Below are positions 10,101-25,293 of a stretch of 32,000 nucleotides of DNA, piece by piece. The notes beneath the pieces are model-generated. The model did not search any database. It was not told where the DNA came from and saw only the letters and a program-made list of their open reading frames with translations. The stretch's first letter is position 1, and each line of letters opens with the position of its first letter. The position numbers and the translations under genes are program-made. The stretch is from an uncultured Candidatus Saccharimonas sp. (GTDB lineage Bacteria; Patescibacteriota; Saccharimonadia; Saccharimonadales; Saccharimonadaceae): contig CAURWT010000003.1 of NCBI GenBank assembly GCA_963528875.1, positions 118,939 through 150,938 on the forward strand. The letters run 5' to 3'.

Positions 10101-13100
10101 ATGCATAAAATACAATCAGAATTAGAATTTGAGCAAGAAGTTATTGAATATCTAACAAAAATCGGAAATGTTAAACAGTGGGAATACGTAAAAGACATAA
10201 AAGATACTCAAGGTTTGTGGGATAATTTTAAGCGAATTATCGAACAAAATAATACAGCAAGGCTGGAAGAGCCTCTTTCGAAAAGTGAGTTTGCTCAAAT
10301 TAAAGAACAAATTAGAAATCTTAAAACGCCATATCAAGCTGGTCAGTTTTTATATGGTACAAATGGTGTGTCGGAGATTTCGATCAACCTCGATAAAGGC
10401 GGTTCAACAACATTATTGATATTTGATCAAGAACAAATTGGCGCTGGAAATACTGTATATCAAGTGGTGAATCAAATTAAAAGACCAGCTATTGTAGATG
10501 GAAAAAATAGTCGCCGTTTTGATGTTACGTTACTAATAAATGGTTTACCAATTATTCAGATTGAGCTAAAAAAGGCAACAAATACTGTAACTGATTCTTT
10601 AAACCAAATGGAGCAATATATTGCAGAAAACCAATACAGTGGTATTTTTTCGACACTACAAGTTTTGGTGGCAATGACGCCGAATGATATTAAATATATG
10701 GCGAACACTACGGCTGGAAACTTTAACCGAGATTTTGCTTTTTCTTGGCAAGACGAGGAGACTTCAAAGCCTGTTAACGACTGGAGGACTTTTGCAGATA
10801 AAGTTCTTTCAATCCCGATGGCACACAATATTGCAACGCAATACATGATTTTAGACGGGACGAAAGGTCGCGAATCAATTAAAGTTATGCGACCATACCA
10901 AGTGTATGCAACCAAGAGAATTATTGATAGGATACGAAGATCGAATTTTAATTTTCACGACGGTAAATTTGGTTATATTTGGCACACAACGGGTAGTGGC
11001 AAAACAATAACAAGTTTCAAAACTGCATGGCTGGCGAGTCGGTTGCCAAATGTTTCGAAAGTAATTTTTCTTGTTGACAGAATCGCATTAACAAGGCAAA
11101 CCGCAGATAAATACTCGGCTTACGACCCAACTTCAAACGATTCTAGGGTTGTTAGTGATACTAAAAATGTTACGGATCTTAAAAATAAACTTCTTAAACG
11201 CACGGATAAAAATATCATTGTAACGAGTATTCAAAAGATGGCTCGATACGTAAAAAGCCCAGATTTCAAGGAATTGGATGGAAATATTCTGTTTATTGTT
11301 GATGAGGCTCATCGCTCGACTGGAGATGGTGCAGACAATGAGGCGATGCTTGAAGTTATTCGAAATAAAATCCCAAATTCGGGCTGGATAGGTTATACTG
11401 GAACGCCAAAATTCCCACAGACTCAAAATACTTTTGGTAGACTTTTGCATGCATATACAATTAAAGAAGCTATCGCTGACCGCAATGTTCTAGGCTTTAA
11501 TGTTGCATTTAGGGAGACGATTAAAGTTTCAGAAGACCGAGAAGAATATGACAGTAAAACTAAAACCGCTATATATGATGAAAGTAATAATCATTTAGAA
11601 TTGGTGGTTGAGGATATTTTTAAATATTGGCAAGAGCGTTCGGCTGAAAGAAGATATAACGCCATTCTCACTGTTCATGTTGGTGGTGGCGGAGCGTCAA
11701 TACCGCGCGCAATGCAATATTTTGATAAGTTTGAAGAAATTAACAAAACTCTACCGCCAGAAGAACGCTTAAAAGTGGCTGTGAGCTTCTCAATGGACAC
11801 TTCAAACGGCGATAATCAGCTTCAAACCAACCAAAACCTTGCTCGTGCAATAAAATCATACAATAAGCTTTTTAACGAGAACTTTGATATGACAACAGTT
11901 AAGGAATACGCTGAAAGTGTTCAAGACCGGCTTTCGAAAAACAGCGAAGACGGCAAATATCTTGATCTTGTGATTGTGGTTGATCAACTTTTGACCGGCT
12001 TTGATGCGCCCGAGCTGAACACGCTATATGTCGATAGAACGCTTAAAGGCTCGTCGCTGATTCAAGCTTATTCACGCACGAATCGTGTTCATAACTTTAA
12101 CTATAAGCCTTTTGGAAACATTATCAATTATCGCTGGCCAGAATTAAATAAAGCGGAAATGGAAGAAGCGTTGAGTATCTATTCAAATCGCGACTCTGCG
12201 AATGTTAGCGGAATACAGCTTTCATTAACTGATAGCGGAGTTCTTTCGAAACCATTTAGTAGTGTGGTTCAAGAACTAAAAGATGTTATTACGGAGCTTC
12301 GAACGCAAACAGAAGATTTTAAATATCTTTCGCCGAGTGAGGCTGTTCAAGATGCAACTTTCGAAAACCTTAAAAAATATTCAAGATTAGTGAACGCAGC
12401 CAAGCAATACACTGCAGGTAATGTTGATGGTGAAGAAATAATCTCGGTTGACAAAGAGCCGGATCTTTTCTATAAAACAATTGGAATCGCCAAAGATGAA
12501 GAAGTTCGCCTAACAACGGTGATAGCAAATGATCTTAAAAGGCGCCGTTCAAAGGCTGAAGGTATTGATGTTTCACATATCGAGCTTGAAATGGCACACA
12601 TTCACAATGTGCGAGTGAACTATGACTATCTAACAGATTTGATCGCGAGAATGGCAAACGCCGTTCATGAAAAAAATATTGAAACCGCTGAGAAGCTTAA
12701 AGAAGAAATTCACCGCGAGCTTGAAAAAGCCGAGAACGAGCAAGATAGAATTAAATTCAGAGACTTCGTTCGAAAAATTATTAAAGGCGAGTATAAGTTT
12801 AATAAATACCCAGCACCAAATAATCGAGAAGAAGTTATCGAGGCTCTGAACGAATCGCAAGAGCAAACGGCAAATAGTAAAATTGATGATTTTATTGCAC
12901 GCTGGGGAATTGGCAAAAACACCACCAACCTTGAGCTAACTCAAATGGTCAACAAACATCGCGTTGGCAGCAGAGAGGATTTAAACAAACAAAACGAATT
13001 AAACAAGATTATGAATAGGAATCAAACGAATTATCAAACCAATCAGAATACAGAACTTGCCCAGCTGAAATGGATTGAGTGGCGAAACCGCTTTACTGAT

Positions 13101-13142
13101 GAAATTTATAACTTGGCAGACCAGATTGTGAGGGCTAAATAA
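10101..13142 (+). CDS. hsdR: Type I restriction enzyme, R (endonuclease/translocase) subunit
   Basis: 1013 aa. N-terminal nuclease region (RRFDVTLLINGLPIIQIELKK, PD-(D/E)xK-like); SF2 helicase motifs TGSGKT (I), DEAHRS (II) and a motif VI-like QAYSRTNR. Adjacent hsdS and hsdM. Confidence 0.92.
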   Translation: MHKIQSELEFEQEVIEYLTKIGNVKQWEYVKDIKDTQGLWDNFKRIIEQNNTARLEEPLSKSEFAQIKEQIRNLKTPYQAGQFLYGTNGVSEISINLDKGGSTTLLIFDQEQIGAGNTVYQVVNQIKRPAIVDGKNSRRFDVTLLINGLPIIQIELKKATNTVTDSLNQMEQYIAENQYSGIFSTLQVLVAMTPNDIKYMANTTAGNFNRDFAFSWQDEETSKPVNDWRTFADKVLSIPMAHNIATQYMILDGTKGRESIKVMRPYQVYATKRIIDRIRRSNFNFHDGKFGYIWHTTGSGKTITSFKTAWLASRLPNVSKVIFLVDRIALTRQTADKYSAYDPTSNDSRVVSDTKNVTDLKNKLLKRTDKNIIVTSIQKMARYVKSPDFKELDGNILFIVDEAHRSTGDGADNEAMLEVIRNKIPNSGWIGYTGTPKFPQTQNTFGRLLHAYTIKEAIADRNVLGFNVAFRETIKVSEDREEYDSKTKTAIYDESNNHLELVVEDIFKYWQERSAERRYNAILTVHVGGGGASIPRAMQYFDKFEEINKTLPPEERLKVAVSFSMDTSNGDNQLQTNQNLARAIKSYNKLFNENFDMTTVKEYAESVQDRLSKNSEDGKYLDLVIVVDQLLTGFDAPELNTLYVDRTLKGSSLIQAYSRTNRVHNFNYKPFGNIINYRWPELNKAEMEEALSIYSNRDSANVSGIQLSLTDSGVLSKPFSSVVQELKDVITELRTQTEDFKYLSPSEAVQDATFENLKKYSRLVNAAKQYTAGNVDGEEIISVDKEPDLFYKTIGIAKDEEVRLTTVIANDLKRRRSKAEGIDVSHIELEMAHIHNVRVNYDYLTDLIARMANAVHEKNIETAEKLKEEIHRELEKAENEQDRIKFRDFVRKIIKGEYKFNKYPAPNNREEVIEALNESQEQTANSKIDDFIARWGIGKNTTNLELTQMVNKHRVGSREDLNKQNELNKIMNRNQTNYQTNQNTELAQLKWIEWRNRFTDEIYNLADQIVRAK

Positions 13143-13163
13143 ATGGAAGCAGAGGTGAACAAG

Positions 13164-14303
13164 ATGACAAAACAACCAAGTTATCGCTTTGCGGGTTATA
13201 CTGAACCTTGGGCTGAGAAGAAGTTGGGGGAAGTTGCGGAAGTTAATCCTAAATCAGTAGTTCCTGATGAGTTTAAATATGTTGATTTAGGGGCAGTGGT
13301 AGGAACAGAGATGATTTCGTATAGAAATGAAACTATTCCTACATCGCCATCTAGAGCACAGCGATTGGCCATTAAAGGGGATATATTCTACCAAACAGTG
13401 AGACCTTATCAGAAAAATAACTATTTATTTGAAAAAGATGATAATGATTATGTGTTTTCTACGGGTTATGCACAATTAAGACCTAGTGGAGATGGATGTT
13501 TTTTATTGTCTTATTTGCAGACTAATAAATTTGTAAATGTTGTCTTAGATAATTGTACAGGAACAAGTTACCCAGCAATAAACTCAAAAGATTTATCTGA
13601 TATTTTCATTTCCCTCCCATCCCTCCCCGAGCAAACTGCCATTGGTTCTTTCTTCCAAGATATTGACCAGCTCATTAGCCTTCAACAGCGTAAGTTAGAG
13701 GTGTTCAAAGAGCAGAAGAAAACCTACCTCAAGCTCCTCTTCCCAGCCAAAGGACAAACCAAACCAGCCCTTCGCTTTGCAGGATTTGAAGATGACTGGA
13801 AGGAAGTGAAGTTGGGGGAAATTGTAGCTTCTGAAAGAAAAGGCAAAGCAAAATCTGAGATGATTGGTAATAAGTCTGTCTATTTAGACACTATCTATCT
13901 GAATGGTGGAGAGCAAACAAGAGTTGATTATGATTGTGATACATCAAAAGAGGATATTATCATATTATGGGATGGTTCACAGGCTGGTACTGTTTATTAT
14001 GGTTTTGAAGGAGCTTTAGGCTCAACTTTGAAATCATATAAAATATTTGGTAGTGGAAGTTTTTATTATCAGCAAATGAAGGCTAGTCAATCACTAATAT
14101 TTGAGAGATATAGAACACCCAATATACCTCATGTAATAAAAAGTTTCTTAGATGATTTTTATATTTTCACAACTTCTCTCCCTGAACAACAAGCCATCGG
14201 TTCTTTCTTCCAAGACCTAGACAAGGCCATTGCTAAGCAAGAGGAAAAAGTCAACCAGCTCAAAGAAAGCAAACAAACCCTACTCAGAAAAATGTTTATC
14301 TAA
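13164..14303 (+). CDS. hsdS: Type I R-M specificity subunit
   Basis: Two variable TRDs, each followed by a conserved helix (LPSLPEQTAIGSFFQDIDQLISLQQRKL... and SLPEQQAIGSFFQDLDKAIAKQEEKV...). ATG 13164 follows GAGGTG; ATG 13143, which directly abuts the hsdR stop (TAAATG), is an alternative start. Confidence 0.88.
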   Translation: MTKQPSYRFAGYTEPWAEKKLGEVAEVNPKSVVPDEFKYVDLGAVVGTEMISYRNETIPTSPSRAQRLAIKGDIFYQTVRPYQKNNYLFEKDDNDYVFSTGYAQLRPSGDGCFLLSYLQTNKFVNVVLDNCTGTSYPAINSKDLSDIFISLPSLPEQTAIGSFFQDIDQLISLQQRKLEVFKEQKKTYLKLLFPAKGQTKPALRFAGFEDDWKEVKLGEIVASERKGKAKSEMIGNKSVYLDTIYLNGGEQTRVDYDCDTSKEDIIILWDGSQAGTVYYGFEGALGSTLKSYKIFGSGSFYYQQMKASQSLIFERYRTPNIPHVIKSFLDDFYIFTTSLPEQQAIGSFFQDLDKAIAKQEEKVNQLKESKQTLLRKMFI

Positions 14304-14329
14304 ATAAAAAGAAAGGAGAGTGTAATATT

Positions 14330-15949
14330 ATGAATAAATCAAAAGAAATTTCAGCTCAGCTTTGGGATATGGCGAACAAATTGCGAGGCACAATGGACGC
14401 CAGCGAATATAAAAACTATATTTTGCCGTTCATGTTTTATAGATATCTTTCAGAAAAGCAAGACAATTATCTGAAAGAGAACGGCCTTGAAGATTTTTAT
14501 GCTGCAAGCGGTGAAGAGCTAAGAGAATATCTAAAAGATTTGAAAATAAATTTGAGTTATGCGGTTTTGCCAGAGTATTCTTGGGGTGAGTTGATTTCGA
14601 AAATTGCAGATTATAAAATTAAGGCGAGCGACTACCAAGATATGTTTGATGCTTTTCGCGAGAATGCTGCACAGAATAGCGGTGAGGCTGAATCTTTAGC
14701 GGATATCTTCTCGGATATGAATTTGGGCGATATGCGGCTTGGTTCTGATATTAACGAGCGTGCACGAGCTTTGAACGAAATCGTGCTGATGATTAATGAT
14801 TTTAATTTTAAAGATGAATCTGGCCGTGATATCTTGGGCGATGTTTATGAATATTTGATTGGTGAATTTGCGGCAAACGCAGGCAAAAAGGGTGGAGAGT
14901 TTTATACACCGCATGAAGTGAGCCAGATTTTAGCAAAAATCACAACACTTAATAAAAATAATAACGGCGAGCAATTTAGGGTTTATGACCCAACGATGGG
15001 TTCGGGGTCGCTACTTTTGACTGTTCAAAAAGAATTAACCTCGGAAAGAGATTCTGGAAAAGTGGAATTTCACGGGCAGGAATTGAACGCTACGACATAT
15101 AATTTGGCGCGAATGAACTTGATGATGCACGACGTGAATTATAGTAATATGAAATTGAAGCGAGGCGATACTCTGAGTGCTGTTGACTGGCCTTCAATTG
15201 AAGAAAACGGTGTGCAAAGCCCGCTGAGGTTTGATGCGGTGGTGGCCAATCCGCCATATTCGCAACAATGGGATATTGAAAATATTGATCGTAATAAAGA
15301 CGTTCGCTTTAAAAACTTTGGAATTGCACCAAAATCGAAAGCAGATTATGCCTTTGTTTTGCACGGATTGCACCATTTGGCGAATGACGGCACAATGGCG
15401 ATTGTTTTGCCACACGGAGTTTTATTCCGTGGTGCTGCCGAAGCTAAAATTCGCAAAAAATTAATTGATGAAAATTTGGTTGATGCTGTAATTGGCTTGC
15501 CAGCAAACCTTTTCTATGGCACGAGCATTCCAACATGTATTTTGGTGATAAAAGGCCGTGAAGCACGAAAAAACACAAAAGATATTTTGTTTATCGATAC
15601 TTCAAGTCATTTTGAAAAAGCTAAAAACAAGAATAAGTTGAGAAAAGAAGATATTTCGAAGATTTTAGAGGCCTATTCAAACCGGCAAGATATTGAAAAA
15701 TATGCGCACGTGGCAAGTATTGAAGAGATTCGCGACAATGATTATAATTTAAATATTCCACGATATGTTGATACTTTCGAAGAGGATGAAGTAAAACCGC
15801 TTACGGAAATCGCAGAAGAAATGAAAGAAATTGACAGGGGAATAAAAGAAGTTTCGGATGAAATTCTTGCATCAATGAAGAAGCTTGTTGGCACCACACT
15901 AGAAGCACAAAAAGAGCTAGAAGAGTTTATTAAAATTATTGAAAGCTAA
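14330..15949 (+). CDS. hsdM: Type I R-M N6-adenine DNA methyltransferase subunit
   Basis: HsdM N-terminal domain (LWDMANKLRG...YKNYILPFMFYRYLS), AdoMet motif I DPTMGSGSLL, catalytic NPPY (ANPPYSQQW); SD AAAGGAG upstream. Confidence 0.93.
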   Translation: MNKSKEISAQLWDMANKLRGTMDASEYKNYILPFMFYRYLSEKQDNYLKENGLEDFYAASGEELREYLKDLKINLSYAVLPEYSWGELISKIADYKIKASDYQDMFDAFRENAAQNSGEAESLADIFSDMNLGDMRLGSDINERARALNEIVLMINDFNFKDESGRDILGDVYEYLIGEFAANAGKKGGEFYTPHEVSQILAKITTLNKNNNGEQFRVYDPTMGSGSLLLTVQKELTSERDSGKVEFHGQELNATTYNLARMNLMMHDVNYSNMKLKRGDTLSAVDWPSIEENGVQSPLRFDAVVANPPYSQQWDIENIDRNKDVRFKNFGIAPKSKADYAFVLHGLHHLANDGTMAIVLPHGVLFRGAAEAKIRKKLIDENLVDAVIGLPANLFYGTSIPTCILVIKGREARKNTKDILFIDTSSHFEKAKNKNKLRKEDISKILEAYSNRQDIEKYAHVASIEEIRDNDYNLNIPRYVDTFEEDEVKPLTEIAEEMKEIDRGIKEVSDEILASMKKLVGTTLEAQKELEEFIKIIES

Positions 15950-15963
15950 AAATCTGAAAATTA

Positions 15964-15998
15964 AAATTCGCACTCTGATTAAAAGGGCGCGAATTTTT
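15964..15998 (+). terminator. terminator after hsdM
   Basis: AAATTCGC / GCGAATTT 8-bp stem with a 17-nt loop; the T5 run formed by the 3' arm's TTT plus two further T's ends at 15998. Confidence 0.5.
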
Positions 15999-16065
15999 GC
16001 TATTTAGACAAAAAATATTATACTAATGTCAATACGATTAGCTAGCGATTGAATCGAGTCTTCTA

Positions 16066-16094
16066 TTGACAAAGTAAGGTTTTTAATATATAAT
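16066..16094 (+). promoter_or_regulatory. perfect consensus promoter (TTGACA-N17-TATAAT)
   Basis: TTGACA 16066-16071 and TATAAT 16089-16094, followed by SD GGAGGG and ATG 16137. Confidence 0.6.
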
Positions 16095-16136
16095 ATTTAG
16101 GTATATTTTATCTAAAAATAATTCTTATGGAGGGCT

Positions 16137-16319
16137 ATGAAAACAGTAACGATAATGAAATATCGAATTGGAGATAAATATTTTTTTAAAGTTTTAGATA
16201 AATTCGATATTAAAGATGAAGTTGAGCGTCTTGATGAGATGATTAGGATTTCGAACGATCTAAGTTTGGAAAATAAAGATTACGAACAACTTTGGATTAA
16301 AGAAACGGTCCTATTTTAA
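16137..16319 (+). CDS. hypothetical 60-aa cytoplasmic protein
   Basis: Consensus promoter plus GGAGGG SD 3 nt upstream of the ATG. No family recognised. Confidence 0.45.
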   Translation: MKTVTIMKYRIGDKYFFKVLDKFDIKDEVERLDEMIRISNDLSLENKDYEQLWIKETVLF

Positions 16320-16378
16320 TTGTAGAATAAAAGTTTAAGAAAGACCGGGAAACTAACCGCCAAGATGCGCTAAACAAT

Positions 16379-16735
16379 GTGGATTCGCAAATTGAAAGTA
16401 GCCGAATTGACTTGAATAACCGCATTATGGATGCAAGGCAGAAACAAAAGACTGCCAATGGCCAAGGATTGCAGAGCGCGATAGACCAAACACGGGATCT
16501 ATCTAACCAAATTAGCAACAGCCAGAACAAGATTTTGGATTTGAGCAAAGAAACACCAAAAGCGCTTGAAAAGGTGGAATTTAAAGCACCAAAGCTTAGC
16601 GATTATAGCGAAAACGTGCAAGGTGTGAAGGTGGACAGCGGAAATCCAGACCAAGCAGGACTCCAAGACCAGCTTGATCCACGGCTTGCTGCACTACTTG
16701 ATCCAAATAAGAAGAAGAAAGATTTGCAGGCGTAG
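16379..16735 (+). CDS. hypothetical Q/N/D-rich protein, possibly a 5'-truncated gene remnant
   Basis: The frame is open from 16331 with no ATG (GTG at 16379 only) and no SD. Hydrophilic, coiled-coil-like sequence; a hairpin plus T-run follows at about 16735-16766. Confidence 0.3.
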   Translation: MDSQIESSRIDLNNRIMDARQKQKTANGQGLQSAIDQTRDLSNQISNSQNKILDLSKETPKALEKVEFKAPKLSDYSENVQGVKVDSGNPDQAGLQDQLDPRLAALLDPNKKKKDLQA

Positions 16736-16828
16736 AAAGGGAAGCTCGAAAGGGCTTTCTTTTATTGAGGCGTATTGAGTTTGACAAAACGAAAGAGATT
16801 ATGTTAAAATGAAAATAACAATAAGCAA

Positions 16829-16865
16829 TTTACAAAAGGTGGGAGGTTGGTGTATAATATACACC
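16829..16865 (+). promoter_or_regulatory. promoter (TTTACA-N18-TATAAT) with a 17-bp perfect palindrome over the -10 (candidate TA operator)
   Basis: TTTACA 16829-16834 and TATAAT 16853-16858. The palindrome GGTGTATA-A-TATACACC spans 16849-16865. A second upstream promoter-like TTGACA (16781)-N18-TAAAAT (16805) also exists. Confidence 0.5.
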
Positions 16866-16874
16866 AAAATAATT

Positions 16875-17345
16875 ATGGTACTATTCAATTTTAAACAAAG
16901 GGTGGACATTTTAGATATAGCTTCTTGGTTTTTATCAAAAGAATCTATGTCTCAAAAGAAATTGCAAAAACTTTGCTATTATGCTGAAGCTTGGAGTCAA
17001 GCGTTGCGAGATAAATCGATTGCAGAAAGAGCAGAATTTGAAGCATGGGTTCATGGCCCCGTGAATGTGGAGTTACGACGAAAATATGCTTCATTTGGAT
17101 GGGGAAATATTCCAAAGGAGACTCCAAATTATGAATTACTAAGCTCTGAAGATGGCCTAGTTCAATTACTAGAATCTGTCTGGGCTACTTATGGCGATCA
17201 AGATGGGGATTCTTTAGAGGTATTAACACATCAAGAAAAACCTTGGATTGAAGCACGAGGTGCTACTCCAGAGTTTAAGCCTTGTAGCAAAAAAATATCA
17301 ACAAAAACAATGAGGGAATTTTACAAGTCTATTCATGAGGAATAA
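16875..17345 (+). CDS. Panacea-domain (DUF4065, SocA/PanA-like) antitoxin
   Basis: KKLQKLCYYAEAWSQAL...FEAWVHGPVNVELRRKY...LEVLTHQEKPW matches the DUF4065/Panacea signature (KLQKLLYY..., W.HGPV, TH.E.PW). Start taken at Met23 of the ORF-track product because ATG 16809 lies upstream of the predicted promoter. Confidence 0.8.
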   Translation: MVLFNFKQRVDILDIASWFLSKESMSQKKLQKLCYYAEAWSQALRDKSIAERAEFEAWVHGPVNVELRRKYASFGWGNIPKETPNYELLSSEDGLVQLLESVWATYGDQDGDSLEVLTHQEKPWIEARGATPEFKPCSKKISTKTMREFYKSIHEE

Positions 17346-17736
17346 GAAGCGTAAGGCTAAAAAGCCTAAAGGGTTGACATCTAAAAATAGTCCGAAGAAA
17401 GAAGCACCGATACTAACCAGGCATAGTGAAGGGATTTTTAAGGTTGCTTTTATAGGTGAGGCTACTCAGAAGGATTATACATTTAAAGATTGCACACCTA
17501 AAGAATGGCACAATATAGGTAAATTTTTAGATAATTGGGTCGGCAAGCCAGTGAGGCAAGTTAACTCACTTAAAAAGAGAGAGGACGATGATGATGACGT
17601 ATGGACTACTAAATCTGGCGAAAAGGTTAAGATAAAACATTATGAATATTCTCAATCGGGCAGACTTCATGGATACAATATGGATGGGTATTTTATTGTA
17701 ACCCGAATAGACCCAAACCACGAATTTCATCAATAA
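17335..17736 (+). CDS. candidate toxin partner of the Panacea antitoxin (unknown family)
   Basis: Overlaps the antitoxin by 11 nt (ATG 17335, upstream stop 17343-17345). 133 aa with a Lys-rich N-terminal tail, a DDDDD acidic patch and C-terminal GRLHGYNMDGYFIVTRIDPNHEFH, loosely reminiscent of RelE/ParE-fold C-termini. Confidence 0.55.
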   Translation: MRNKKRKAKKPKGLTSKNSPKKEAPILTRHSEGIFKVAFIGEATQKDYTFKDCTPKEWHNIGKFLDNWVGKPVRQVNSLKKREDDDDDVWTTKSGEKVKIKHYEYSQSGRLHGYNMDGYFIVTRIDPNHEFHQ

Positions 17737-17815
17737 TGCTCTTTTAAGTCTTTGCACTCTTTGATAAATTTTGTATAATATTCATACTAAAGTTTTTTAA
17801 TGAATGTTTTCTGTA

Positions 17816-17848
17816 GAAGAAGCCCTGCTCGGGTTTCTTTTATTTTAT
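17816..17848 (+). terminator. terminator of the PanA-toxin operon
   Basis: GAAGAAGCCC / GGGTTTCTTT stem (two G-U pairs), 5-nt loop, followed by TATTTTAT. Confidence 0.55.
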
Positions 17849-17857
17849 AGATAATTC

Positions 17858-17943
17858 TGTTATAATAAAACTATAAAATAATCCACTCAGAGCGCTGAGC
17901 GATTAGCAAAATATTAACATTTGCGTCGCTCAGTTTTTTATTT
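17858..17943 (+). promoter_or_regulatory. extended -10 promoter plus terminator/anti-terminator-like leader of the large gene
   Basis: TGtTATAAT at 17858-17866. Hairpin A is CTCAG(17886-90)/CTGAG(17895-99). Hairpin B is CTGAGCGA(17895-17902)/TCGCTCAG(17926-33) followed by TTTTTTATTTT. A and B share CTGAG. Confidence 0.4.
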
Positions 17944-17968
17944 TGTAGCGACAAGATAAGGAGAAGAG

Positions 17969-19078
17969 ATGGATATTTTCAAAGGTATTGGCGACTTTTT
18001 TGGTGGACTTTTTGGCCAAAAGAAAAAGCGAGAAGATGAACAACAACCACAGCAACAACAATCTGCGGTGAGTTTTAATAGCACGCCCAAACTTGGGGAT
18101 AATTTTATAAATAATTTAAGCAATCCAACCCAGCCACAGCAGCCAAAAGAATTTGCGAAGAGTTCGGTGGACTTAAACCCAGTAAAGCCGGTGCAGCCTG
18201 TGCAACCACAGCCACAAGTGAACCGAGAGCAGGAACGCCAGCAACTAGCAAACAAGTATCGGCAAGAAGAAACAGACCGCTATAACCAAGGTTCAGACCA
18301 TGCAGCTAATTTCTTGAATGATATTTTTAGTGGTGGTAAAACAGCACAAATGCGAGAAAATACGATCAACCAGAATATCCAGAACCGGGTGAATGCTGAA
18401 ATGCTCCGAAAATATGGGCCAGATGACCAACAAGTGAAGCAAAACATTGATCAAACTAGTCAAAGTATTAATAGAAACGCTTCAGCCGTGAGTGATTTTA
18501 CTAAAAATTACAATAATAATCTTCAGCAAACAGTTGTTGCGCCAGTATCAGCAGCGAAAGGTGCAGCTAACAGTGTGGTGGAATTTGTTCCGAAAGTATC
18601 GGGGGCGATTACAGAACTTGGCGCTAATACAATCAAACTCTTTGATGAAGATAATCAATTCGCGAATAATTTGATTAAGCGTGTGCGAGCAGACCGTGAA
18701 AAGAACATTGTGCGAAAAACACTTAATGATACAACAGGTTTAACTGATCAAGATAATAAAATGGCTTATGGCTTGGGTAGTTCTGGAGCAAGAATGGCGA
18801 TTGATGCCGCAATGACCCCCGTGACTGGCGGTATCGCGCCAGCGGTAATACATGGTGTGGAAGCACACTCAGAGATGATGGGCCACTTGGATGACATCGA
18901 AGCTCGGAAAAAAGCTGAAGCGGCGGCAAAAGGTGAAGTATATATACCAAGTAGTTTTAGCTCTCGCTATTTAGCCTCAACTGCTAATGCCGGAGTACAA
19001 GCCGCTATTGAAAAACTTGGAATAGATAACGTAACCGGTAAGATTGGCGGTAAATTTGCAAAAAATATGGTTGGGTGA
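17969..19078 (+). CDS. N-terminal segment of a ~937-codon multidomain toxin/polyvalent-like protein; ends at in-frame TGA 19076-19078
   Basis: SD AAGGAG 17958-63. Gly/Phe-rich N-terminus MDIFKGIGDFFGGLFG, a Q/P-rich low-complexity linker, then helical and Gly-rich hydrophobic segments. Same frame as 19094..20782. Confidence 0.6.
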   Translation: MDIFKGIGDFFGGLFGQKKKREDEQQPQQQQSAVSFNSTPKLGDNFINNLSNPTQPQQPKEFAKSSVDLNPVKPVQPVQPQPQVNREQERQQLANKYRQEETDRYNQGSDHAANFLNDIFSGGKTAQMRENTINQNIQNRVNAEMLRKYGPDDQQVKQNIDQTSQSINRNASAVSDFTKNYNNNLQQTVVAPVSAAKGAANSVVEFVPKVSGAITELGANTIKLFDEDNQFANNLIKRVRADREKNIVRKTLNDTTGLTDQDNKMAYGLGSSGARMAIDAAMTPVTGGIAPAVIHGVEAHSEMMGHLDDIEARKKAEAAAKGEVYIPSSFSSRYLASTANAGVQAAIEKLGIDNVTGKIGGKFAKNMVG

Positions 19079-19093
19079 GCTATCACGGGTGCA

Positions 19094-20782
19094 TTGGGTG
19101 AAGCCGGTGAAGAAGGTGCACAGCAATATGCCGAAAACTTCACTAAAAAGCTTTTCGGCAACAAACAAGATATCCATGAAGGCGTAGCAGAAAGCGCTCT
19201 TATGGGTGGAATTATGGGCGGAGCTGGTAAAATGGCCTTTGGCGGGATGGAATCTGTGAAAAATCCATATAAGAGCAACAATATGGCAGATGGCGAAGTA
19301 AGTATTTCTAAACTTCACCCAGACCAAATGGGCTACAATAAGGATGCAGTTTTAGGTAAATTTACAGGCGACACTCGCAAACGAATGAGTGAGCGTAGTT
19401 TTAATACGCTTCAAGATTTGCGGGCAAATAATCCGTATGTGACGGGTGATGGACAAGAAATTAGCTTGACTAATAAGGGGAATAAAAAATATACCAGCAC
19501 AAAATCTCCTGAAACAAACGAAGAGTTTGTAGCTAAAATGCGAAGTACTCCACGAATTGGTGAACTTATAAATAACTCTTTATGCTCACACTCTGCATAC
19601 GACACTAAAAACCACGGTATCGCACCGGATGGTTTTGATTACCGTACAGCGAACTTTAAATATGGTGGAAAAAATTACGAAACCATGTTTAATGTAGCAA
19701 AAAACGATGCCCGAAATAATACATTATATGGCGGATTGACAAAAGAAAAGAACCACTCTGGTGGGCTTAATGCCGCGCCTGGGGAGCTTGTCTTACCAGG
19801 ACAGAGTGATTCTTATAATTCTAATATAGCACAAAAAGACCAAAAAGTCAATAACGGCTATCAATATTCAGATGAAATTCGCAATAAAATAGATCAAAGC
19901 TTAGATGAAAGACTTTTGCGGGTGCGAGATAATACCGGCGAAACCCTTGCAGATTTCGAAACAAGGCTAAAACGAGAAGGGGCTACAGAACAAGAAATTG
20001 AACCGTATAAGAATAGTTTTATTCGCCGTGCTAAAATGTTCTTAGAAGAACCAGGATCTATGCCAGGATGGAGTTTAGATCAAGATAGCAAGCAAAATAA
20101 CGAAACGAATTTGTCAGACTTTAATTTTCAGCCATCTACAATTAACGAAAATACCAGACTATACCACGGTACGAACGGTAAAGTGGCGGAAGAAATTCAC
20201 AAGAATGGCTTTAAACGCGGTAATGAATTAGATGAAAATGCATATTTTGGTGGTGGATATGACGTTAGAGATCAAGATAGCGTAAGTTTTTCAACGAACC
20301 GGAAAGTTTCGGAAACCTTTGCAATTAATGGGCGAGATAGCGGTAAAGGTTCGGGAGCTTTAATTGAGGCTCGGCTACTTCCGGATGCTCGCGTGGTTGA
20401 AACAGATGCTGAAATATATGCTGAAGATCTAAATGAAGTTACAGAACGACTTCGCGAACAAGGTGTGGATGCGGTTTTCTTGAAAAGCAATGGCGAAGAT
20501 GAATTGGTGGTTTTGAACCCTGAAAAAGTAGATAGAAATATCTTGATCGAAAGATATAAGCTAGCGAACCAACAAAAACAAGCTCTTACCGCTAAACTGG
20601 AAGACCTTAAAGCTCGCCACCAAAACCTAACAGGTGATGAAGACTTGGTATTTAATATTTTTAAAGATGAACTTCAAAAGAATGCTCTGGGTTATTTTAA
20701 ACCCGAAAACCAAACTATGAACTATGGGAGATGGATTTTCTTTCGACGACATATTCGAATGCGATTGTTTTTGCTGCGTTAA
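19094..20782 (+). CDS. C-terminal segment of the same protein (frame open from 19079): Gly-zipper segment, nuclease-like module, ART-superfamily-like module
   Basis: 19094-17969 is a multiple of 3, and the text reads through as ...KNMVG*AITGALGEAGEEG.... There is no SD or ATG at 19094. LYHGT...AYFGGGY...SVSFST...EDELVVLNPEKV lies at about 20140-20535. The last ~25 codons are an out-of-frame read of the GH15 remnant. Confidence 0.6.
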   Translation: MGEAGEEGAQQYAENFTKKLFGNKQDIHEGVAESALMGGIMGGAGKMAFGGMESVKNPYKSNNMADGEVSISKLHPDQMGYNKDAVLGKFTGDTRKRMSERSFNTLQDLRANNPYVTGDGQEISLTNKGNKKYTSTKSPETNEEFVAKMRSTPRIGELINNSLCSHSAYDTKNHGIAPDGFDYRTANFKYGGKNYETMFNVAKNDARNNTLYGGLTKEKNHSGGLNAAPGELVLPGQSDSYNSNIAQKDQKVNNGYQYSDEIRNKIDQSLDERLLRVRDNTGETLADFETRLKREGATEQEIEPYKNSFIRRAKMFLEEPGSMPGWSLDQDSKQNNETNLSDFNFQPSTINENTRLYHGTNGKVAEEIHKNGFKRGNELDENAYFGGGYDVRDQDSVSFSTNRKVSETFAINGRDSGKGSGALIEARLLPDARVVETDAEIYAEDLNEVTERLREQGVDAVFLKSNGEDELVVLNPEKVDRNILIERYKLANQQKQALTAKLEDLKARHQNLTGDEDLVFNIFKDELQKNALGYFKPENQTMNYGRWIFFRRHIRMRLFLLR

Positions 20783-21351
20783 ATTCTGCCGCGGATCTTG
20801 CGCGAGATTTTAGTAAGCCTCAAGACGCTTATCGCTGGCGGGCCGCTGCTGATAAAATCAAGAAAGCAGCAAATCAAGAATTATTTAACACAGATTTAAA
20901 TTATTTCTATCGTGGAATTTGGCCTTCTGGCGAAAAAGACCCGAAAATTGACGCATCGAGTTTTTATGGTGCGTTTATGTTCGGACTTTTTGATTTTAGT
21001 TCATCTGAAATTGAGAGATCTTTCGAATCTCTAAAGAAGTATTTTGAAGCGGAACAAAATATTGGCATTCCTCGTTTTGAAAATGATGTATATTATCGTT
21101 TCTCTGATGATTATAATTCTAATATTTGGATAATTTCAACACTTTGGGAGACAGAATTTTATCTTGCAAAAGGCGATAAACGACAGGCTGAGCGGATATT
21201 GGATTGGGCTATAACAAGGAGCTCTTCTACTGGAACTCTGCCAGAGTAAATCAATCCTCGTAATCTTGAATGGCTTTCTGTAGCTCCTCTAACTTGGAAT
21301 CAGACTGAATTTATTTTGGCTCTACTTAACTTAATTTCTCTGGAAGAATAA
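20701..21351 (+). pseudogene. glycoside hydrolase family 15 (glucoamylase-like) gene remnant: 5'-truncated with an internal TAA
   Basis: KPNYELWE...TYSNAIVFAAL...NIWIISTLWETEFYLAKGD...GTLPE* then, in frame after TAA 21247-49, INPRNLEWLSVAPLTWNQTEF.... This fits the conserved GH15 C-terminus (LPEQ...PLTWSHA), with the Q codon (CAA) replaced by TAA. Only the last ~215 codons are present. Confidence 0.7.
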
Positions 21352-21405: not shown

Positions 21406-21678
21406 ATGAATAATTTTCGAAAAACATTTTCAAAATACCTAGAGACTACAAATGAGCGCATAAAACTTCAGAGGTTTTATATTATTGCCGCCGTAATGAG
21501 CTTTTGTGTAGCGAGTGTAGTTAGTCTTATCAGTCAGGGATTAGGCCATCTAATTATATTTTTGTCAATTTTAGCATCTGGTCTTTTTCTGGTTAATTCA
21601 ATTATTTGGGTGATTGGCGTAGCTCTGCTGGAGACCTTTTCGTTGTCTAAAAAACCTTCCTCTAAAAAACAAAAATAG
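21406..21678 (+). CDS. small two-TM membrane protein, Lys-rich C-terminus
   Basis: 90 aa with two hydrophobic helices (FYIIAAVMSFCVASVVSLI and IIFLSILASGLFLVNSIIWVIGVALL); good promoter. Confidence 0.55.
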   Translation: MNNFRKTFSKYLETTNERIKLQRFYIIAAVMSFCVASVVSLISQGLGHLIIFLSILASGLFLVNSIIWVIGVALLETFSLSKKPSSKKQK

Positions 21679-21717
21679 TTTCAATTTTTGCATTTTGTAT
21701 GATATAATTGGACTGTC

Positions 21718-21793
21718 GCCGCGATAGCTCAGTTGGTAGAGCGCATCCATGGTAAGGATGAGGTCTCGGGTTCAAGCCCCGATCGTGGCTCCA
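21718..21793 (+). tRNA. tRNA-Thr (anticodon GGU), CCA encoded
   Basis: Hand-folded cloverleaf. Acceptor GCCGCGA/TCGTGGC (one G-U pair), D arm GCTC-AGTTGGTA-GAGC, anticodon arm CATCC-ATGGTAA-GGATG with GGT at 21751-53, T arm TCGGG-TTCAAGC-CCCGA, discriminator T, then CCA. Confidence 0.9.
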
Positions 21794-21812
21794 AATTTAC
21801 TATCGGTCTAAA

Positions 21813-21847
21813 AGCCGCATCTTGTGTAGTAAAAGGTGCGGCTATTT
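21813..21847 (+). terminator. hairpin after tRNA-Thr
   Basis: AGCCGCA / TGCGGCT 7-bp stem with a 17-nt loop and a weak T tract. Confidence 0.4.
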
Positions 21848-21850
21848 AAA

Positions 21851-21880
21851 TTAAAAAATCCCCGAGGCGTCTCGAGGATT
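21851..21880 (-). terminator. rho-independent terminator of the minus-strand operon
   Basis: On the minus strand, AATCCTCGAG ACGC CTCGGGGATT (one mismatch) is followed by TTTTTTAA, 12 nt after the stop codon at 21892-94. Confidence 0.6.
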
Positions 21881-21891
21881 ATTAAAATGTG

Positions 21892-22776
21892 CTAGTCTTC
21901 AAGGGGAAGATTAATCTTGAATCTTCCCTCTACCGCTAGGTGTCGAAATACCTGCATAACGTCCCAATTATCTGCAGCATATTTCAGCTCCTTAGCGGTT
22001 AGTTCTTCTTTTTCAGAGAAGTATTTATTTACTAGGTCCTCTATATCTGAGAACCAGTTATTTACTTCCCGGTAGTCATCAGCATAGATGACCAAATTAT
22101 CTGGAATTTCTTCCAGAATTGTATCATCCGTTAATCCGTCAATTAAGTTCCATACGGATCGACGGATGTTTCGTCCTATCTTATTTGCCAGATCCTTACG
22201 GATCTTAGCAATAAGATTTGTGCCGTCAAGCATATATAATGCTTTAGGCACTAGTAACTCAAATTCCTCGTATTCACCCTGGTGGGCAGATTTGAGGAAT
22301 TCTATAAGCTCTTCGCCTTGGTTCATTTTGTTTGCAAGGCGAAGAGCTTTTTTGGCATACGCCTCCTTAGAAGTGTATGCTAGAAGATGCGCTTCGTTAT
22401 CGTAAAAGCGAACAAGCACATCTTCGGCAATCCGCTGCCAGCCGGCAGTTAATTCGCCGGTTTCAAGCGGATTGCCATCAAGCGTCTCCCCACGGTATTT
22501 AGTGCCATCAATGTTGATGACTCTAACAAATTTACCATCGGGGAGTTGCTCGACTCCCATCAGCTCAAATATACGGGGCTGCCGATAAAATATTTGATAT
22601 TTTACCAGCTCGCTCCGGAAGAAACTCCAGGGGTTGGGAGTTTCTTTATTTTGAGACAGATTATAAAAATCTATCTCAAAATTTTCTTCTTCCAAAAAAT
22701 CTCTGTCCCAGTCGTCTTTATCGACATGGGTAAAGGTTTTTTTGGAAGGTTTTTTTAATCTTCTGGCGACCTTCAA
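21892..22776 (-). CDS. hypothetical protein (distal cistron, or C-terminal ~290 codons of a frameshifted larger gene)
   Basis: 294-codon ORF with only a TTG start and no SD. It overlaps the upstream ORF by 59 nt across two A7 runs. No family recognised. Confidence 0.55.
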   Translation of the reverse strand: MKVARRLKKPSKKTFTHVDKDDWDRDFLEEENFEIDFYNLSQNKETPNPWSFFRSELVKYQIFYRQPRIFELMGVEQLPDGKFVRVINIDGTKYRGETLDGNPLETGELTAGWQRIAEDVLVRFYDNEAHLLAYTSKEAYAKKALRLANKMNQGEELIEFLKSAHQGEYEEFELLVPKALYMLDGTNLIAKIRKDLANKIGRNIRRSVWNLIDGLTDDTILEEIPDNLVIYADDYREVNNWFSDIEDLVNKYFSEKEELTAKELKYAADNWDVMQVFRHLAVEGRFKINLPLED

Positions 22777-23233
22777 ACTCCGGAAGGCCCTCTCCTAAAA
22801 GCACTGCTTTTAGGGTTTGAGTAAAGTTGGTATAAAAATCACAATAAATGACCGTTCTGCCAACTTTAATAACGGTAGGATGCTCTTTAAGAGTTTCTTG
22901 TTTATCTTCCTCATGCGACACATAAGGTATCGCCACTAGGACATCTTCTTCTACATATTCGTCGATGATTTTACCGACGGATGTGAAGAACTGATAGTCA
23001 TGATTATGACGAGTATCTACCCGCCATGAACCAACTGGTATTAGTGATCCTAGTTGGTCGAAGAACCCTTCCCCAGAATTTCCAGAACGGCTTATAAAAG
23101 TCGTTCTGCCTCCACACATTGTGTGGAGTTTATCGTGGTCGTACTCCACATCCAAAATTTTTGGAGTTTGTCGATCTTCTAGAGAGAGAAATAGGTCAGT
23201 TGAACCGTGGCCTCAATAAAATTTTTTTTTCAT
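22718..23233 (-). CDS. hypothetical protein with in-frame TGA at codon 7 (ATG 23231-23233)
   Basis: The minus strand reads AAAGG-N8-ATG AAA AAA AAA TTT TAT TGA GGC CAC GGT..., in frame with the 145-aa ORF-track product (22718..23155, TTG start). The ATG overlaps the stop of the upstream small ORF (ATGA). Confidence 0.5.
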
Positions 23234-23361
23234 GATTTTTCCTTTCTTTCGTCAAAGCTATTTAATTTAAGGGATTTTCCCACTTTGACACCCATTATCT
23301 GGGTAAGCTCACTCATGAGCATATCTAAATCCACTATTTTACCAAACTTAGAAATGCTCAT
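23230..23361 (-). CDS. 43-aa small protein, first cistron (possible regulator or antitoxin-like)
   Basis: My translation is MSISKFGKIVDLDMLMSELTQIMGVKVGKSLKLNSFDERKEKS. It lies downstream of a perfect consensus promoter, and its stop TGA overlaps the next ATG (ATGA). There is no clear SD, and it is not in the ORF track (<60 aa). Confidence 0.4.
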   Translation of the reverse strand: MSISKFGKIVDLDMLMSELTQIMGVKVGKSLKLNSFDERKEKS

Positions 23362-23403
23362 AAGTATCAAAAATCATGATAATGCCAAATTTTTAAATAG
23401 CTC

Positions 23404-23456
23404 TGAGACTTTTGTCTCATTGCTATAATTATAGCATAATATTTCGATAATGTCAA
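23404..23456 (-). promoter_or_regulatory. perfect consensus promoter (TTGACA-N17-TATAAT) with palindromic operator and 5' hairpin
   Basis: Minus-strand TTGACA is plus 23451-56 and TATAAT is plus 23428-33. The 14-bp perfect palindrome GCTATAATTATAGC spans 23422-35 and covers the -10. Leader hairpin TGAGAC-AAAA-GTCTCA at 23404-19. Confidence 0.65.
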
Positions 23457-23557
23457 TACTATACTAAATTAACCATTATGTGCCGAAACAGTGCTGCATT
23501 ATTTTATAGTTGAGGATTATTAATTTTTTGTTGGATAATTATTGTTGGTAAAATAAC

Positions 23558-23586
23558 TTGATTTTATCTTTTTACTGTGATAAAAT
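23558..23586 (+). promoter_or_regulatory. promoter of rpmG (TTGATT-N17-TAAAAT, TG-extended)
   Basis: TTGATT 23558-63, TG 23578-79, TAAAAT 23581-86. Confidence 0.5.
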
Positions 23587-23621
23587 AGTTAAGAATTGTA
23601 AATATTAATTTAAGAGAGATT

Positions 23622-23828
23622 ATGGCTAAAAAGAATACGAAACGAAAGATTATTGGTCTTGTAAGCGAAATTACTGGTGACCGAATTTACTACACTCGCA
23701 AAAATACTCAGAATACACCTGAAAAATTATCTTTGCGAAAATATAATCCAAAAACTCGAAAACATGAAATCTTCACAGAAACTAAGAAGTCTCTTGGTCG
23801 AAATGAAGTTAAACCACGAAAAGGTTAA
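23622..23828 (+). CDS. rpmG: 50S ribosomal protein L33 (Cys-less type, C-terminal extension)
   Basis: RIYYTRKNTQNTPEKLSLRKYNPKTRKHEIFTETK matches the L33 core (NY.T.KNKRN.PE.LEL.KYCP.C.KH..H.E.K) with both CxxC pairs absent; 68 aa. Confidence 0.85.
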   Translation: MAKKNTKRKIIGLVSEITGDRIYYTRKNTQNTPEKLSLRKYNPKTRKHEIFTETKKSLGRNEVKPRKG

Positions 23829-23834
23829 TAAATT

Positions 23835-23858
23835 GCACCGTTTGGTGCTTTTTATTTT
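23835..23858 (+). terminator. terminator after rpmG
   Basis: GCACC GTTT GGTGC followed by TTTTTATTTT. Confidence 0.6.
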
Positions 23859-23960
23859 AATGGCTGTAGTTAGTAATAAACCTATCGTTTGTATCTTTTG
23901 CTATACAAAAAAATGTAGGGAATTGTTAAAAATCTCTCTTTAATCAAAGCTCTTGTTTAA

Positions 23961-23969
23961 GGGGGGGGG
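23961..23969. repeat. G9 homopolymer tract
   Basis: Nine consecutive G at 23961-23969 in AT-rich intergenic DNA, 11 nt upstream of the rpsJ -35. Confidence 0.95.
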
Positions 23970-23979
23970 TATTTTTCTA

Positions 23980-24008
23980 TTGTAATTTAGATAAATTTAT
24001 GTTAAAAT
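23980..24008 (+). promoter_or_regulatory. promoter of rpsJ (TTGTAA-N17-TAAAAT, TG-extended)
   Basis: TTGTAA 23980-85, TG 24000-01, TAAAAT 24003-08. The ~85-nt leader has GCTTG...CAAGC pairing; SD TAAGGAG. Confidence 0.5.
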
Positions 24009-24097
24009 ATTGTGGTAATATAAATTGCTTGAGAATTCGTTCGTAGTTATCTTAAAGTTACGAAAGAAGTTACAAGCCTAATATAAGGAGTAAAAAA

Positions 24098-24412
24098 ATG
24101 GCAGAACAAGGCCTAACAATTCGTATTCGCCTAAAGGCATACGACCACAAAGTTATCGACCAAAGTGCAAAGCAAATTGTTGACACAGCAATTCGAACTG
24201 GTGCAACAGTTGCAGGACCAGTACCTCTACCAACACGACGAAGTACTTTTACAGTAGTAAAAAGCCCACATGTTTATAAAATGGGTGGTGAAGCTTACGA
24301 AATGCGTGTTCATAAGCGCCTCATTGATATTAGTAATGCGACACCAAAAACAATTGATTCTTTGCAAAATCTTAGCCTTCCAGCTGGGGTTGATGCAGAA
24401 ATCAAAATGTAA
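24098..24412 (+). CDS. rpsJ: 30S ribosomal protein S10
   Basis: [39 protein letters not shown]...VHKRLIDI is canonical S10; 104 aa. Confidence 0.95.
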
Positions 24413-24831: not shown

Positions 24832-25293
24832 ATGAAAATAATTGTAATTTTAATTGCAACACTGATCATGCTTATAAGAACGGTCGGTAAAGAAAGAATA
24901 AATCGAAAAATGATGATTTTTCTTTCTTCGGTTATTGTTTTAAGCTCAATTTTAATGATAGTTGGTCAGCTAACAAATCAAGAAATTATTTTATTCTCTT
25001 TTCTTGAGATTTCTTCCTATGAAGATAATTTTATTTTTATAGCTTCAAAATTTGCTTTCGAAATTATTTTGAGTATAATAATTCTAGCTAAAGTAGAAGG
25101 AGAGGCAAAATTCAAACAAGATTGTCTCATTTTTTTGTCAGCTATGATTGTAACTCAAACACTTATAGATTACCCAATGGTTATCTCACAATTAGTGGAA
25201 TATAATTTATTTTGGGAAGTACTTTTCACTTTTCTGTATCTCTTTATAGCGAGTTTAGCCTGCAGAGAACAGAAACGCATAACAGAAAAATAA
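24832..25293 (+). CDS. multi-pass membrane protein, unknown function
   Basis: SD GGAGGTG upstream; 153 aa with 4-5 hydrophobic segments. Confidence 0.6.
   Translation: MKIIVILIATLIMLIRTVGKERINRKMMIFLSSVIVLSSILMIVGQLTNQEIILFSFLEISSYEDNFIFIASKFAFEIILSIIILAKVEGEAKFKQDCLIFLSAMIVTQTLIDYPMVISQLVEYNLFWEVLFTFLYLFIASLACREQKRITEK

Follow-up and report, generated by a model that had tools for sequence, protein, structure and literature searches.

A predicted pseudogene behind a candidate regulatory leader RNA in Candidatus Saccharimonas

Does a compact run of minus-strand reading frames beside a tRNA-Thr gene of Candidatus Saccharimonas encode a new multi-gene system, or something simpler? Saccharibacteria and other bacteria of the Candidate Phyla Radiation (CPR) have tiny genomes; to our knowledge, most of their lineage-specific genes and nearly all of their regulation are uncharacterised. 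The question is raised by positions 21851-23456 of a 32,000-nucleotide (nt) stretch of a Candidatus Saccharimonas contig (the window; coordinates are window positions on the minus strand unless noted), which an initial annotation had described as a foreign three-cistron operon consisting of three open reading frames (ORF1, ORF2 and ORF3). Comparison with related loci (labelled L001-L030, the close ones coming from Candidatus Saccharimonas metagenome-assembled genomes, with P-numbers for related proteins) leads to a different view: ORF2 and ORF3 belong to one and the same gene, ORF1 lies within a leader RNA, and the region is probably a single pseudogene of the chromosomal backbone, preceded by a structured leader RNA with a regulatory role.

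The first part of the answer concerns the coding region. A repaired fusion of ORF2 and ORF3 matches 66 proteins, mostly of about 446 amino acids (aa) and with near-full-length coverage, none of which carries a Pfam domain or an informative name. The closest relative, P0001 (446 aa, 95% identity), is intact, has Trp at the position of an in-frame TGA in the window and reads KIKKTFQKTFTHVDKDD across the point where the window frame is shifted. The frames of the initial annotation exist as drawn, namely ORF2 with its TGA at 23215-23213 and its end at 22718, and the overlapping 294-codon ORF3 at 22776-21892; they are, in place of separate cistrons, pieces of a single 446-codon gene at 23233-21892 (start codon 23233-23231) that is intact in relatives. 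Two lesions divide it. Codon 7 (23213-23215) is TGA where relatives have TGG, in a Trp column that is nearly invariant across a 47-sequence alignment, and the A tract at 22737-22743 counts seven residues where intact alleles have six; the DNA of L001, with TGG at codon 7, reads (A7)CCTTCC(A6) against (A7)CCTTCC(A7), a +1 change, in the window.

Both lesions are real, since the exact broken products of the window recur in public assemblies, the 294-aa piece on five contigs and N-terminal pieces on three and two, including one NCBI contig of 374,812 nt; the same recurrence makes sequencing error an unlikely source. An alternative code in which TGA stands for Trp or Gly was also rejected: the other long genes of the window are intact under translation table 11, with end-to-end Pfam matches, so that TGA is a stop here, and relatives have TGG. 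Judged against its intact orthologues, the window copy, with an in-frame stop and a frameshift, is a pseudogene, as the initial annotation had suspected for this strain, and its full-length product is almost certainly not made.

The window allele is one of many broken independently within the same species-level cluster. L018 and P0214 (11 contigs) have lost one residue from the first A tract, L017 shares the +1 change of the window, P0218 and P0017 have a stop near codon 95, and L019 is frameshifted near codon 90; truncated products occur on about 40% of the contigs listed in the cluster, some of these entries possibly being contig-end artefacts. That function has been lost so repeatedly suggests that, in some settings, cells can do without the protein or pay a cost for it. 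They also raise the prospect, compatible with a pseudogene behind a regulatory leader and in our judgement unlikely without being negligible, of a phase-variable contingency gene in which A-tract slippage may provide crude ON/OFF variation. Length changes have arisen independently in the same tandem tracts, which are found as A7/A6 in intact alleles, A7/A7 in the window and L017, and A6/A6 in L018 and P0214, and the A9 run that follows the start codon is A10 in L009 and one residue shorter in the P0221 allele. Repeated frameshifting at these tracts, and a constant regulatory region beside a varying coding state, recall known contingency loci; unlike those, the tracts span only 6-7 nt (9-10 at the start), which is short for classical phase variation, and many lesions are ordinary nonsense mutations or frameshifts outside the tracts, such as the codon-7 stop and those near codons 90 and 95. 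Switching, which we considered from assembled contigs, is a hypothetical element of the comparison.

What precedes the gene is conserved to a degree that the gene itself is not. The structured 5' leader RNA, about 190 nt long (23234-23421), is recognised by its fold and its conservation, being 94-97% identical in six genomes against 45-70% in the coding region. A block that runs from the ribosomal protein L33 gene through promoter, leader and ORF1 (23848-23251) shows 94-98% identity in every column across these six genomes; identity collapses exactly at the start codon of the main gene and recovers at the tRNA, and the neighbouring genes have synonymous divergence (dS) of 0.1-0.5. A stretch of 201 nt that begins directly behind the -10 box and reaches the main start has a minimum free energy (MFE) of -68.7 kcal/mol, compared with -35.0±3.9 kcal/mol for shuffled sequences (z = -8.7; z = -8.4 when the fold was re-tested).

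Five elements make up this fold, the last of them a stem-hairpin motif beside the Shine-Dalgarno sequence (R1, below). The 5'-proximal hairpin UGAGAC-AAAA-GUCUCA (23419-23404), already recognised in the initial annotation, is invariant in nine aligned leaders and altered by one loop base only in a tenth variant, L011. A long-range helix pairs UCAUGAUUUUU (23379-23369) with AAAAAUCAUGA (23240-23230), a strand that includes the main start codon, and all 11 of its pairs are invariant in the nine leaders. Enclosed by it is a long hairpin of about 23 bp (23366-23310), a possible site for a double-strand-specific ribonuclease (RNase), which holds the AUG and the first 17 codons of ORF1; among its variable pairs, six stay paired through one-sided changes and two include mismatching cells. 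In the short hairpin ACCCA-GAUAA-UGGGU (23304-23290) the closing pair 23304/23290 covaries, being A-U in five leaders, G-U in one and G-C in three. Over the nine distinct leaders and 59 pairs, 99.2% of the pair cells are standard and four are mismatched, and besides the covarying pair eight others change on one side and stay paired.

The leader has no match among the 4227 families of Rfam 15 at either gathering or permissive thresholds. When the window and four related loci were searched, only tRNA reached its gathering score, the weaker matches being scattered and inconsistent; 6S RNA, signal recognition particle RNA, tmRNA, RNase P, HEARO and riboswitches were accordingly discarded as identities, as none was matched in Rfam. 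The element looks like an undescribed structured cis-regulatory RNA candidate.

A sigma-70 promoter at 23456-23428, with TTGACA at 23456-23451, a 17-nt spacer and TATAAT at 23433-23428, is as initially annotated and constitutes the sole 12/12 consensus match in the scanned region; it has an extended -10 TG and is kept in every locus of the window clade that carries it. Transcription would begin about 7 nt after the -10 box. The clean intrinsic terminator (21880-21857), a 10-bp stem followed by a T-run, is likewise present and faces the tRNA-Thr(GGT) gene, which lies on the plus strand at 21718-21793 and is convergent with the main gene. On this reading the locus is a single-gene transcription unit, in which a promoter, a structured leader, the gene and a terminator each occur once, and its consensus promoter and folded leader agree with the tight regulation originally proposed. 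For annotation, the lesson is that a small ORF followed by two others can equal a folded leader and a frameshifted gene and not an operon.

A perfect 14-bp palindrome, GCTATAATTATAGC, does overlap the -10 box (23435-23422), as had been stated. The operator role attached to it is unsupported, because its outer G-C pairs are not conserved, being broken by four variant forms in six related loci (L010, L012/13, L015/19 and L018). Inverted repeats bracket -10 boxes in several lineages (L007:7740-7790, L023:6025-6075, L023:6850-6900 and window 23422-23435), and their sequences differ from one lineage to another, as with GCTTATGC...GCATAAGC in L007.

ORF1 (23361-23230) is the remaining piece of the supposed operon. 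Its 43 codons are open and its TGA overlaps the main ATG as ATGA, as reported; the protein product attributed to it finds no support, and most likely it is a chance reading frame within the leader RNA and not a gene. No Shine-Dalgarno sequence precedes it, its 19 variable sites are split 7/4/8 by codon position, and about 14 nonsynonymous against four synonymous changes give a ratio of nonsynonymous to synonymous substitution rates (dN/dS) of about 1. The frame is cut short by a 2-nt insertion in L019 and runs on into the main gene, as an in-frame fusion, in L004, L005, L014, P0007 and P0227; the distant leaders of L007, L023 and L025 have no equivalent. Its translation as a leader peptide, either whole or as the 3' two-thirds from M14 or M16, with ribosomes opening the long-range helix and coupling to the main gene through ATGA, much as with mok/hok or upstream ORFs of the attenuation type, is improbable in our view. 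ORF1 is open in 18 of 19 loci, mostly ending in ATGA, and a 43-codon open frame is somewhat unexpected at about 35% GC; gene callers annotate it on 52 contigs, and in L027 the main start is overlapped by an unrelated ORF of 57 codons. Opposed to this are an AUG buried in the 23-bp hairpin with no ribosome-binding sequence ahead, substitutions that are neutral-like for the protein and preserve RNA structure, and a frame relation to the main gene that varies between loci. The arrangement resembles hok/mok/sok in its 5'-to-3' fold-back helix that shuts the initiation region, its upstream ORF overlapping the main start and its presumed default-repressed design; it departs from that system in that the product is a soluble 446-aa protein and not a small membrane toxin, in that the upstream ORF has neither protein-level selection nor a Shine-Dalgarno sequence, and in that no antisense RNA gene is evident.

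The case for a regulatory leader is extended by loci outside the window clade. A motif termed R1 (23242-23293), directly 5' of the Shine-Dalgarno sequence, consists of an 8-bp stem P1 (23289-23282 with 23258-23251) that encloses a G-rich/AAA(A)/C-rich hairpin P2 (23281-23271) and a UUAAAU-rich loop. It is present once in the window and recurs in the window clade and in L007, L023, L025 and L027, where it lies 10-50 nt upstream of the ATG. In the cross-clade alignment A5, its 13 pairs are 97.3% paired and five have changed on both sides; none of 500 shuffles reaches the score of this alignment, and slid controls score far lower. A covariance model of R1 (cmsearch) returns one match per locus, at 44-62 bits and always just upstream of the family gene. 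In 267 kb it finds a single match elsewhere, at L023:6216-6265, which was outside the training set and lies upstream of a gene for a 115-aa protein. A scan of viral contigs for the leader motif found nothing.

Every distant family gene is likewise preceded by a leader (120-500 nt) and a TTGACA-17-T(G)nTATAAT promoter, and a second leader type is shared by five loci (L006:1850-2307, L020:3930-4387, L025:3512-3959, L028:2839-3332 and L030:391-884). This leader of about 480 nt, also without an Rfam match, is highly conserved over its first 260 nt and contains an invariant, G-quadruplex-like GGGUGGG-N8-GGGUGGG tract together with several conserved hairpins and, distally, an anti-Shine-Dalgarno segment. 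The same leader type also precedes 115-aa gene homologues in L025 and L020, as well as a 138-aa ORF in L006; the two copies in L025 are 86% identical over 337 nt. Five other leaders, four of family genes and one of the 115-aa gene type described below, fold with z = -4.7 to -6.2 relative to shuffles, and in most of them the Shine-Dalgarno sequence or the AUG is paired.

The 115-aa gene (L023:6273-6620, L025:8436-8774 and L020:9745-10083) stands behind the same leader cassettes, 0.4-4 kb from the family gene. Its product is widespread in Saccharibacteria (824 matches) and, to judge from homologues that carry PF08960 and from a weak profile match to AFV3-109 (PDB 2j6b, E ~1e-3), is a remote member of the DUF1874/STIV-B116-like proteins. 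DUF1874 is the AcrIII-1 ring-nuclease family (bioRxiv 10.1101/778746). This likeness belongs to the leader-sharing gene of L020, L023 and L025 and not to the 446-aa protein, to which no relation of the 115-aa protein was found; a DUF1874-like gene is absent from the window. Because both kinds of cassette also precede this unrelated gene, the leader RNA probably defines a small regulon. Since it is absent from Rfam and its cassettes stand before at least two unrelated gene families, it offers a handle for defining a regulon in CPR bacteria. A bolder proposal, which we rate as a long shot, is that the two leader types are a new class of sensor RNA, riboswitch or protein-responsive, controlling a Saccharibacteria-specific regulon whose members include the 446-aa protein, an orphan in its fold, and a putative cyclic-oligoadenylate ring nuclease of DUF1874/AcrIII-1-like type; if true, this would be a module of nucleotide-signal or host-conflict response in an obligate epibiont, and the knock-outs of the protein would reflect a fitness trade-off.

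How such a unit might work can be outlined. The sigma-70 promoter would give rise to a transcript of the leader and the 446-codon gene that ends at the intrinsic terminator, and the leader would hold this mRNA translationally OFF by default, the 11-bp helix 23379-23369/23240-23230 burying the start codon. A cue (binding of a ligand or of an RNA-binding protein, processing of the 23-bp hairpin by an RNase, or temperature) would then remodel the leader and permit initiation, and the genes that share leader cassettes would respond as a regulon. In this respect the leader would resemble translational riboswitches, fourU/ROSE thermometers and ribosomal-protein leaders, which are also long, conserved and folded 5' untranslated regions with a helix that occludes the initiation region; the conserved motif beside the Shine-Dalgarno sequence and the paralogous copies before different genes add to the likeness with riboswitch-type leaders. 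It differs from these in matching no Rfam family, in pairing the AUG and spacer and not the Shine-Dalgarno sequence in the window, in the use of at least two leader architectures for one protein family, and in that ligand binding is hypothetical here.

Several points weigh against a pseudogene behind a regulatory leader as the whole explanation. The start site and the transcription of the leader are predicted from the consensus promoter match. Leaders within the window clade are so alike that covariation is thin, and one of the aligned sequences also served to derive the structure used there; in the MFE fold of the window, the Shine-Dalgarno sequence itself is left unpaired. Across clades, support for R1 comes from only about five independent lineages, and the motif is absent from L006, L020, L022, L028 and L030, where the leader is different and longer. 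The persistence of ORF1 described above may point to a role as leader peptide or in translational coupling. Furthermore, any ligand or protein partner of the leader is hypothetical.

Could the RNA instead be the functional entity? A stand-alone non-coding RNA of about 190 nt, acting in trans or partnering a protein, with the gene merely co-transcribed, is quite improbable. It would account for an RNA that has changed far less than the coding region and survives intact beside dead copies of the gene, for the perfect consensus promoter, and for paralogous copies upstream of several different genes in one genome. Yet no terminator separates RNA and gene, the conserved motif always abuts the Shine-Dalgarno sequence, the long-range helix includes the start codon, and the genes died too recently for decay of the leader to be informative. 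In having a structured RNA of 200-500 nt directly 5' of, and co-oriented with, a gene for a protein of about 450 aa, the locus does recall the omega-RNA (HEARO) of IscB/IsrB, the bridge RNA of IS110 and the msr-msd of retrons. It is unlike them in that Pfam finds no RuvC, HNH, DEDD, other nuclease or reverse-transcriptase domain in the protein and Foldseek no such fold in the PDB (E < 0.001); in that the gene is single-copy and syntenic, with no signs of mobility; and in that the RNA cassette also stands before unrelated small genes. An RNA-protein pair of the retron, IscB or IS110 type was rejected, catalytic domains and folds of those kinds not being found.

With the leader interpreted as a candidate regulatory element, the protein that it would control can be considered in its own right. 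The main gene encodes a cytoplasmic protein of a Saccharibacteria-wide family without known relatives, for which an exhaustive profile search gives 294 representatives at the 50% cluster level, mostly of 380-490 aa. Distant members have an N-terminal motif, GG[KR]xxYxSxSGxSGxG[YF]...YRxDT...PYxSH, and a C-terminal one, DSxxAGNCxPGT, which is lost in the window clade. H107, R71, E307 and E325 are invariant residues of the protein. An AlphaFold2 model computed with the alignment is confident (predicted local distance difference test score, pLDDT, 90.6; predicted template-modelling score, pTM, 0.76) and has no Foldseek match in PDB or BFVD at E < 0.001. Its best match, to PprA (E 0.095, template-modelling score 0.17-0.29, root-mean-square deviation ~11 Å), is not meaningful. 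In agreement with the earlier remark that no product belongs to a named family, Pfam, PHROGs, PADLOC, NCBIfam and PDB sequence profiles hold no relative of the protein, even when distant members are included, and PADLOC-DB v2 returns zero families even at E ≤ 1.

With a dN/dS of about 0.27 among intact alleles, the protein is functional wherever it is intact; the value indicates a gene that evolves fast under purifying selection. The idea of a hypervariable island was toned down: at synonymous sites most pairs diverge in this gene about as much as the background, and only in comparisons with L012 is the value 2-4 times higher than background. The protein may have a defence or toxin role of the single-gene kind. 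The family is tractable, with about 300 clusters at 50% identity and a confident model, and natural populations supply many independent loss-of-function alleles.

The genomic setting bears on whether the gene is foreign. Its order is conserved: NrdD, two small membrane proteins, S10 and L33, the last divergent from the leader and gene, which in turn converge on tRNA-Thr, followed by a 90-aa gene. This L33/S10-gene-tRNA-Thr synteny is kept in all related Candidatus Saccharimonas genomes, whether or not a restriction-modification (R-M) island is adjacent. L004 keeps the main gene and lacks the type I R-M and LPD3 island found at 10101-21249 of the window, the locus there running straight on into the S9/L13/L17/rpoA cluster; the main gene therefore belongs to the chromosomal backbone and the island is an insertion. 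In distant Saccharibacteria the family gene lies at other genomic sites, recurrently between a divergent TrmB gene and a convergent gene for a 725-797-aa protein of unknown function. Comparison of neighbourhoods revealed no protein partner conserved alongside it across lineages.

Two compositional arguments for foreignness fared differently. Codon usage is indeed richer in G/C, with a G+C content at third codon positions (GC3) of 0.42-0.53 in the main gene against 0.22-0.29 in core genes, which fits an old acquisition or allele exchange and not a recent one. The motif TTCGAA is absent from the region, as noted at the outset; as a marker of foreignness this is weak, with only about 2.7 copies expected at the density of the window and some intact alleles having TTCGAA at their EFEG codons.

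A horizontally acquired operon in a defence island, of three genes or of a small protein plus an effector and with a toxin-antitoxin (TA), abortive-infection or defence function, is very improbable: tight control elements, GC3 above that of core genes, a type I R-M island nearby, alleles often inactivated, as with costly defence genes, and fast protein evolution would all suit it, but ORF2 and ORF3 are one gene, ORF1 has a dN/dS of about 1, with broken or fused versions in certain strains and no counterpart in distant relatives, PADLOC, Pfam and PHROG are empty, the synteny is kept even without the R-M island, and no partner protein is conserved. In particular, the small-protein-plus-large-effector layout of TA and abortive-infection systems is not there because PADLOC finds nothing. 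Tests against known system types gave the same picture: no toxin or antitoxin domain of a type II TA system is recognisable in Pfam, PADLOC, PHROGs or NCBIfam and two co-conserved protein genes are not found, nor is the variable presence within defence islands that marks known anti-phage defence, the gene being syntenic in all related genomes.

The surroundings of the locus offer further observations. By comparison with L004, the block beside tRNA-Thr is a variable island (10101-21249), bounded by the S9 gene and the 90-aa gene/tRNA-Thr. In the window it contains hsdR (10101-13142), hsdS (13143-14303) and hsdM (14330-15949), then several ORFs of unknown function, two of which encode a protein with an LPD3 domain (19094-20782) and a GH15 fragment that is truncated (20731-21249); L004 has other genes there, including one for a CAP-domain protein. 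In L001, 100 nt of the tRNA-Thr region are repeated in inverted orientation near hsdM (L001:17513-17613, 92% identical), a second copy that could be another tRNA gene or the remnant of an island attachment site; no such copy was found in the window.

Across the whole window, TTCGAA occurs 53 times where about 10.6 copies are expected from base composition, a five-fold excess interrupted by a TTCGAA-free gap of 2.8 kb at 21417-24191. The motif could be related to methylation or be of the uptake type. On the other side of the locus, the DNA upstream of rpmG (L33) at 23480-23621 is about 98% identical in six genomes, equal to the L33 gene, with the L33-S10 spacer (23849-24044) only 66-72% identical; a conserved L33 promoter or 5' untranslated element is likely there. 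Next to S10, a 153-aa predicted membrane protein (24832-25293) reaches a nonsynonymous divergence (dN) of 0.35-0.48 and a dS of 1.6-2.2 for some pairs, a divergence that far exceeds that of the main gene, even between otherwise close genomes. Downstream of the family gene in L007 (L007:9624-12841), a 536-aa AAA_5 (McrB/MoxR-like) ATPase and a 533-aa protein of unknown function form a possible two-gene, defence-like pair.

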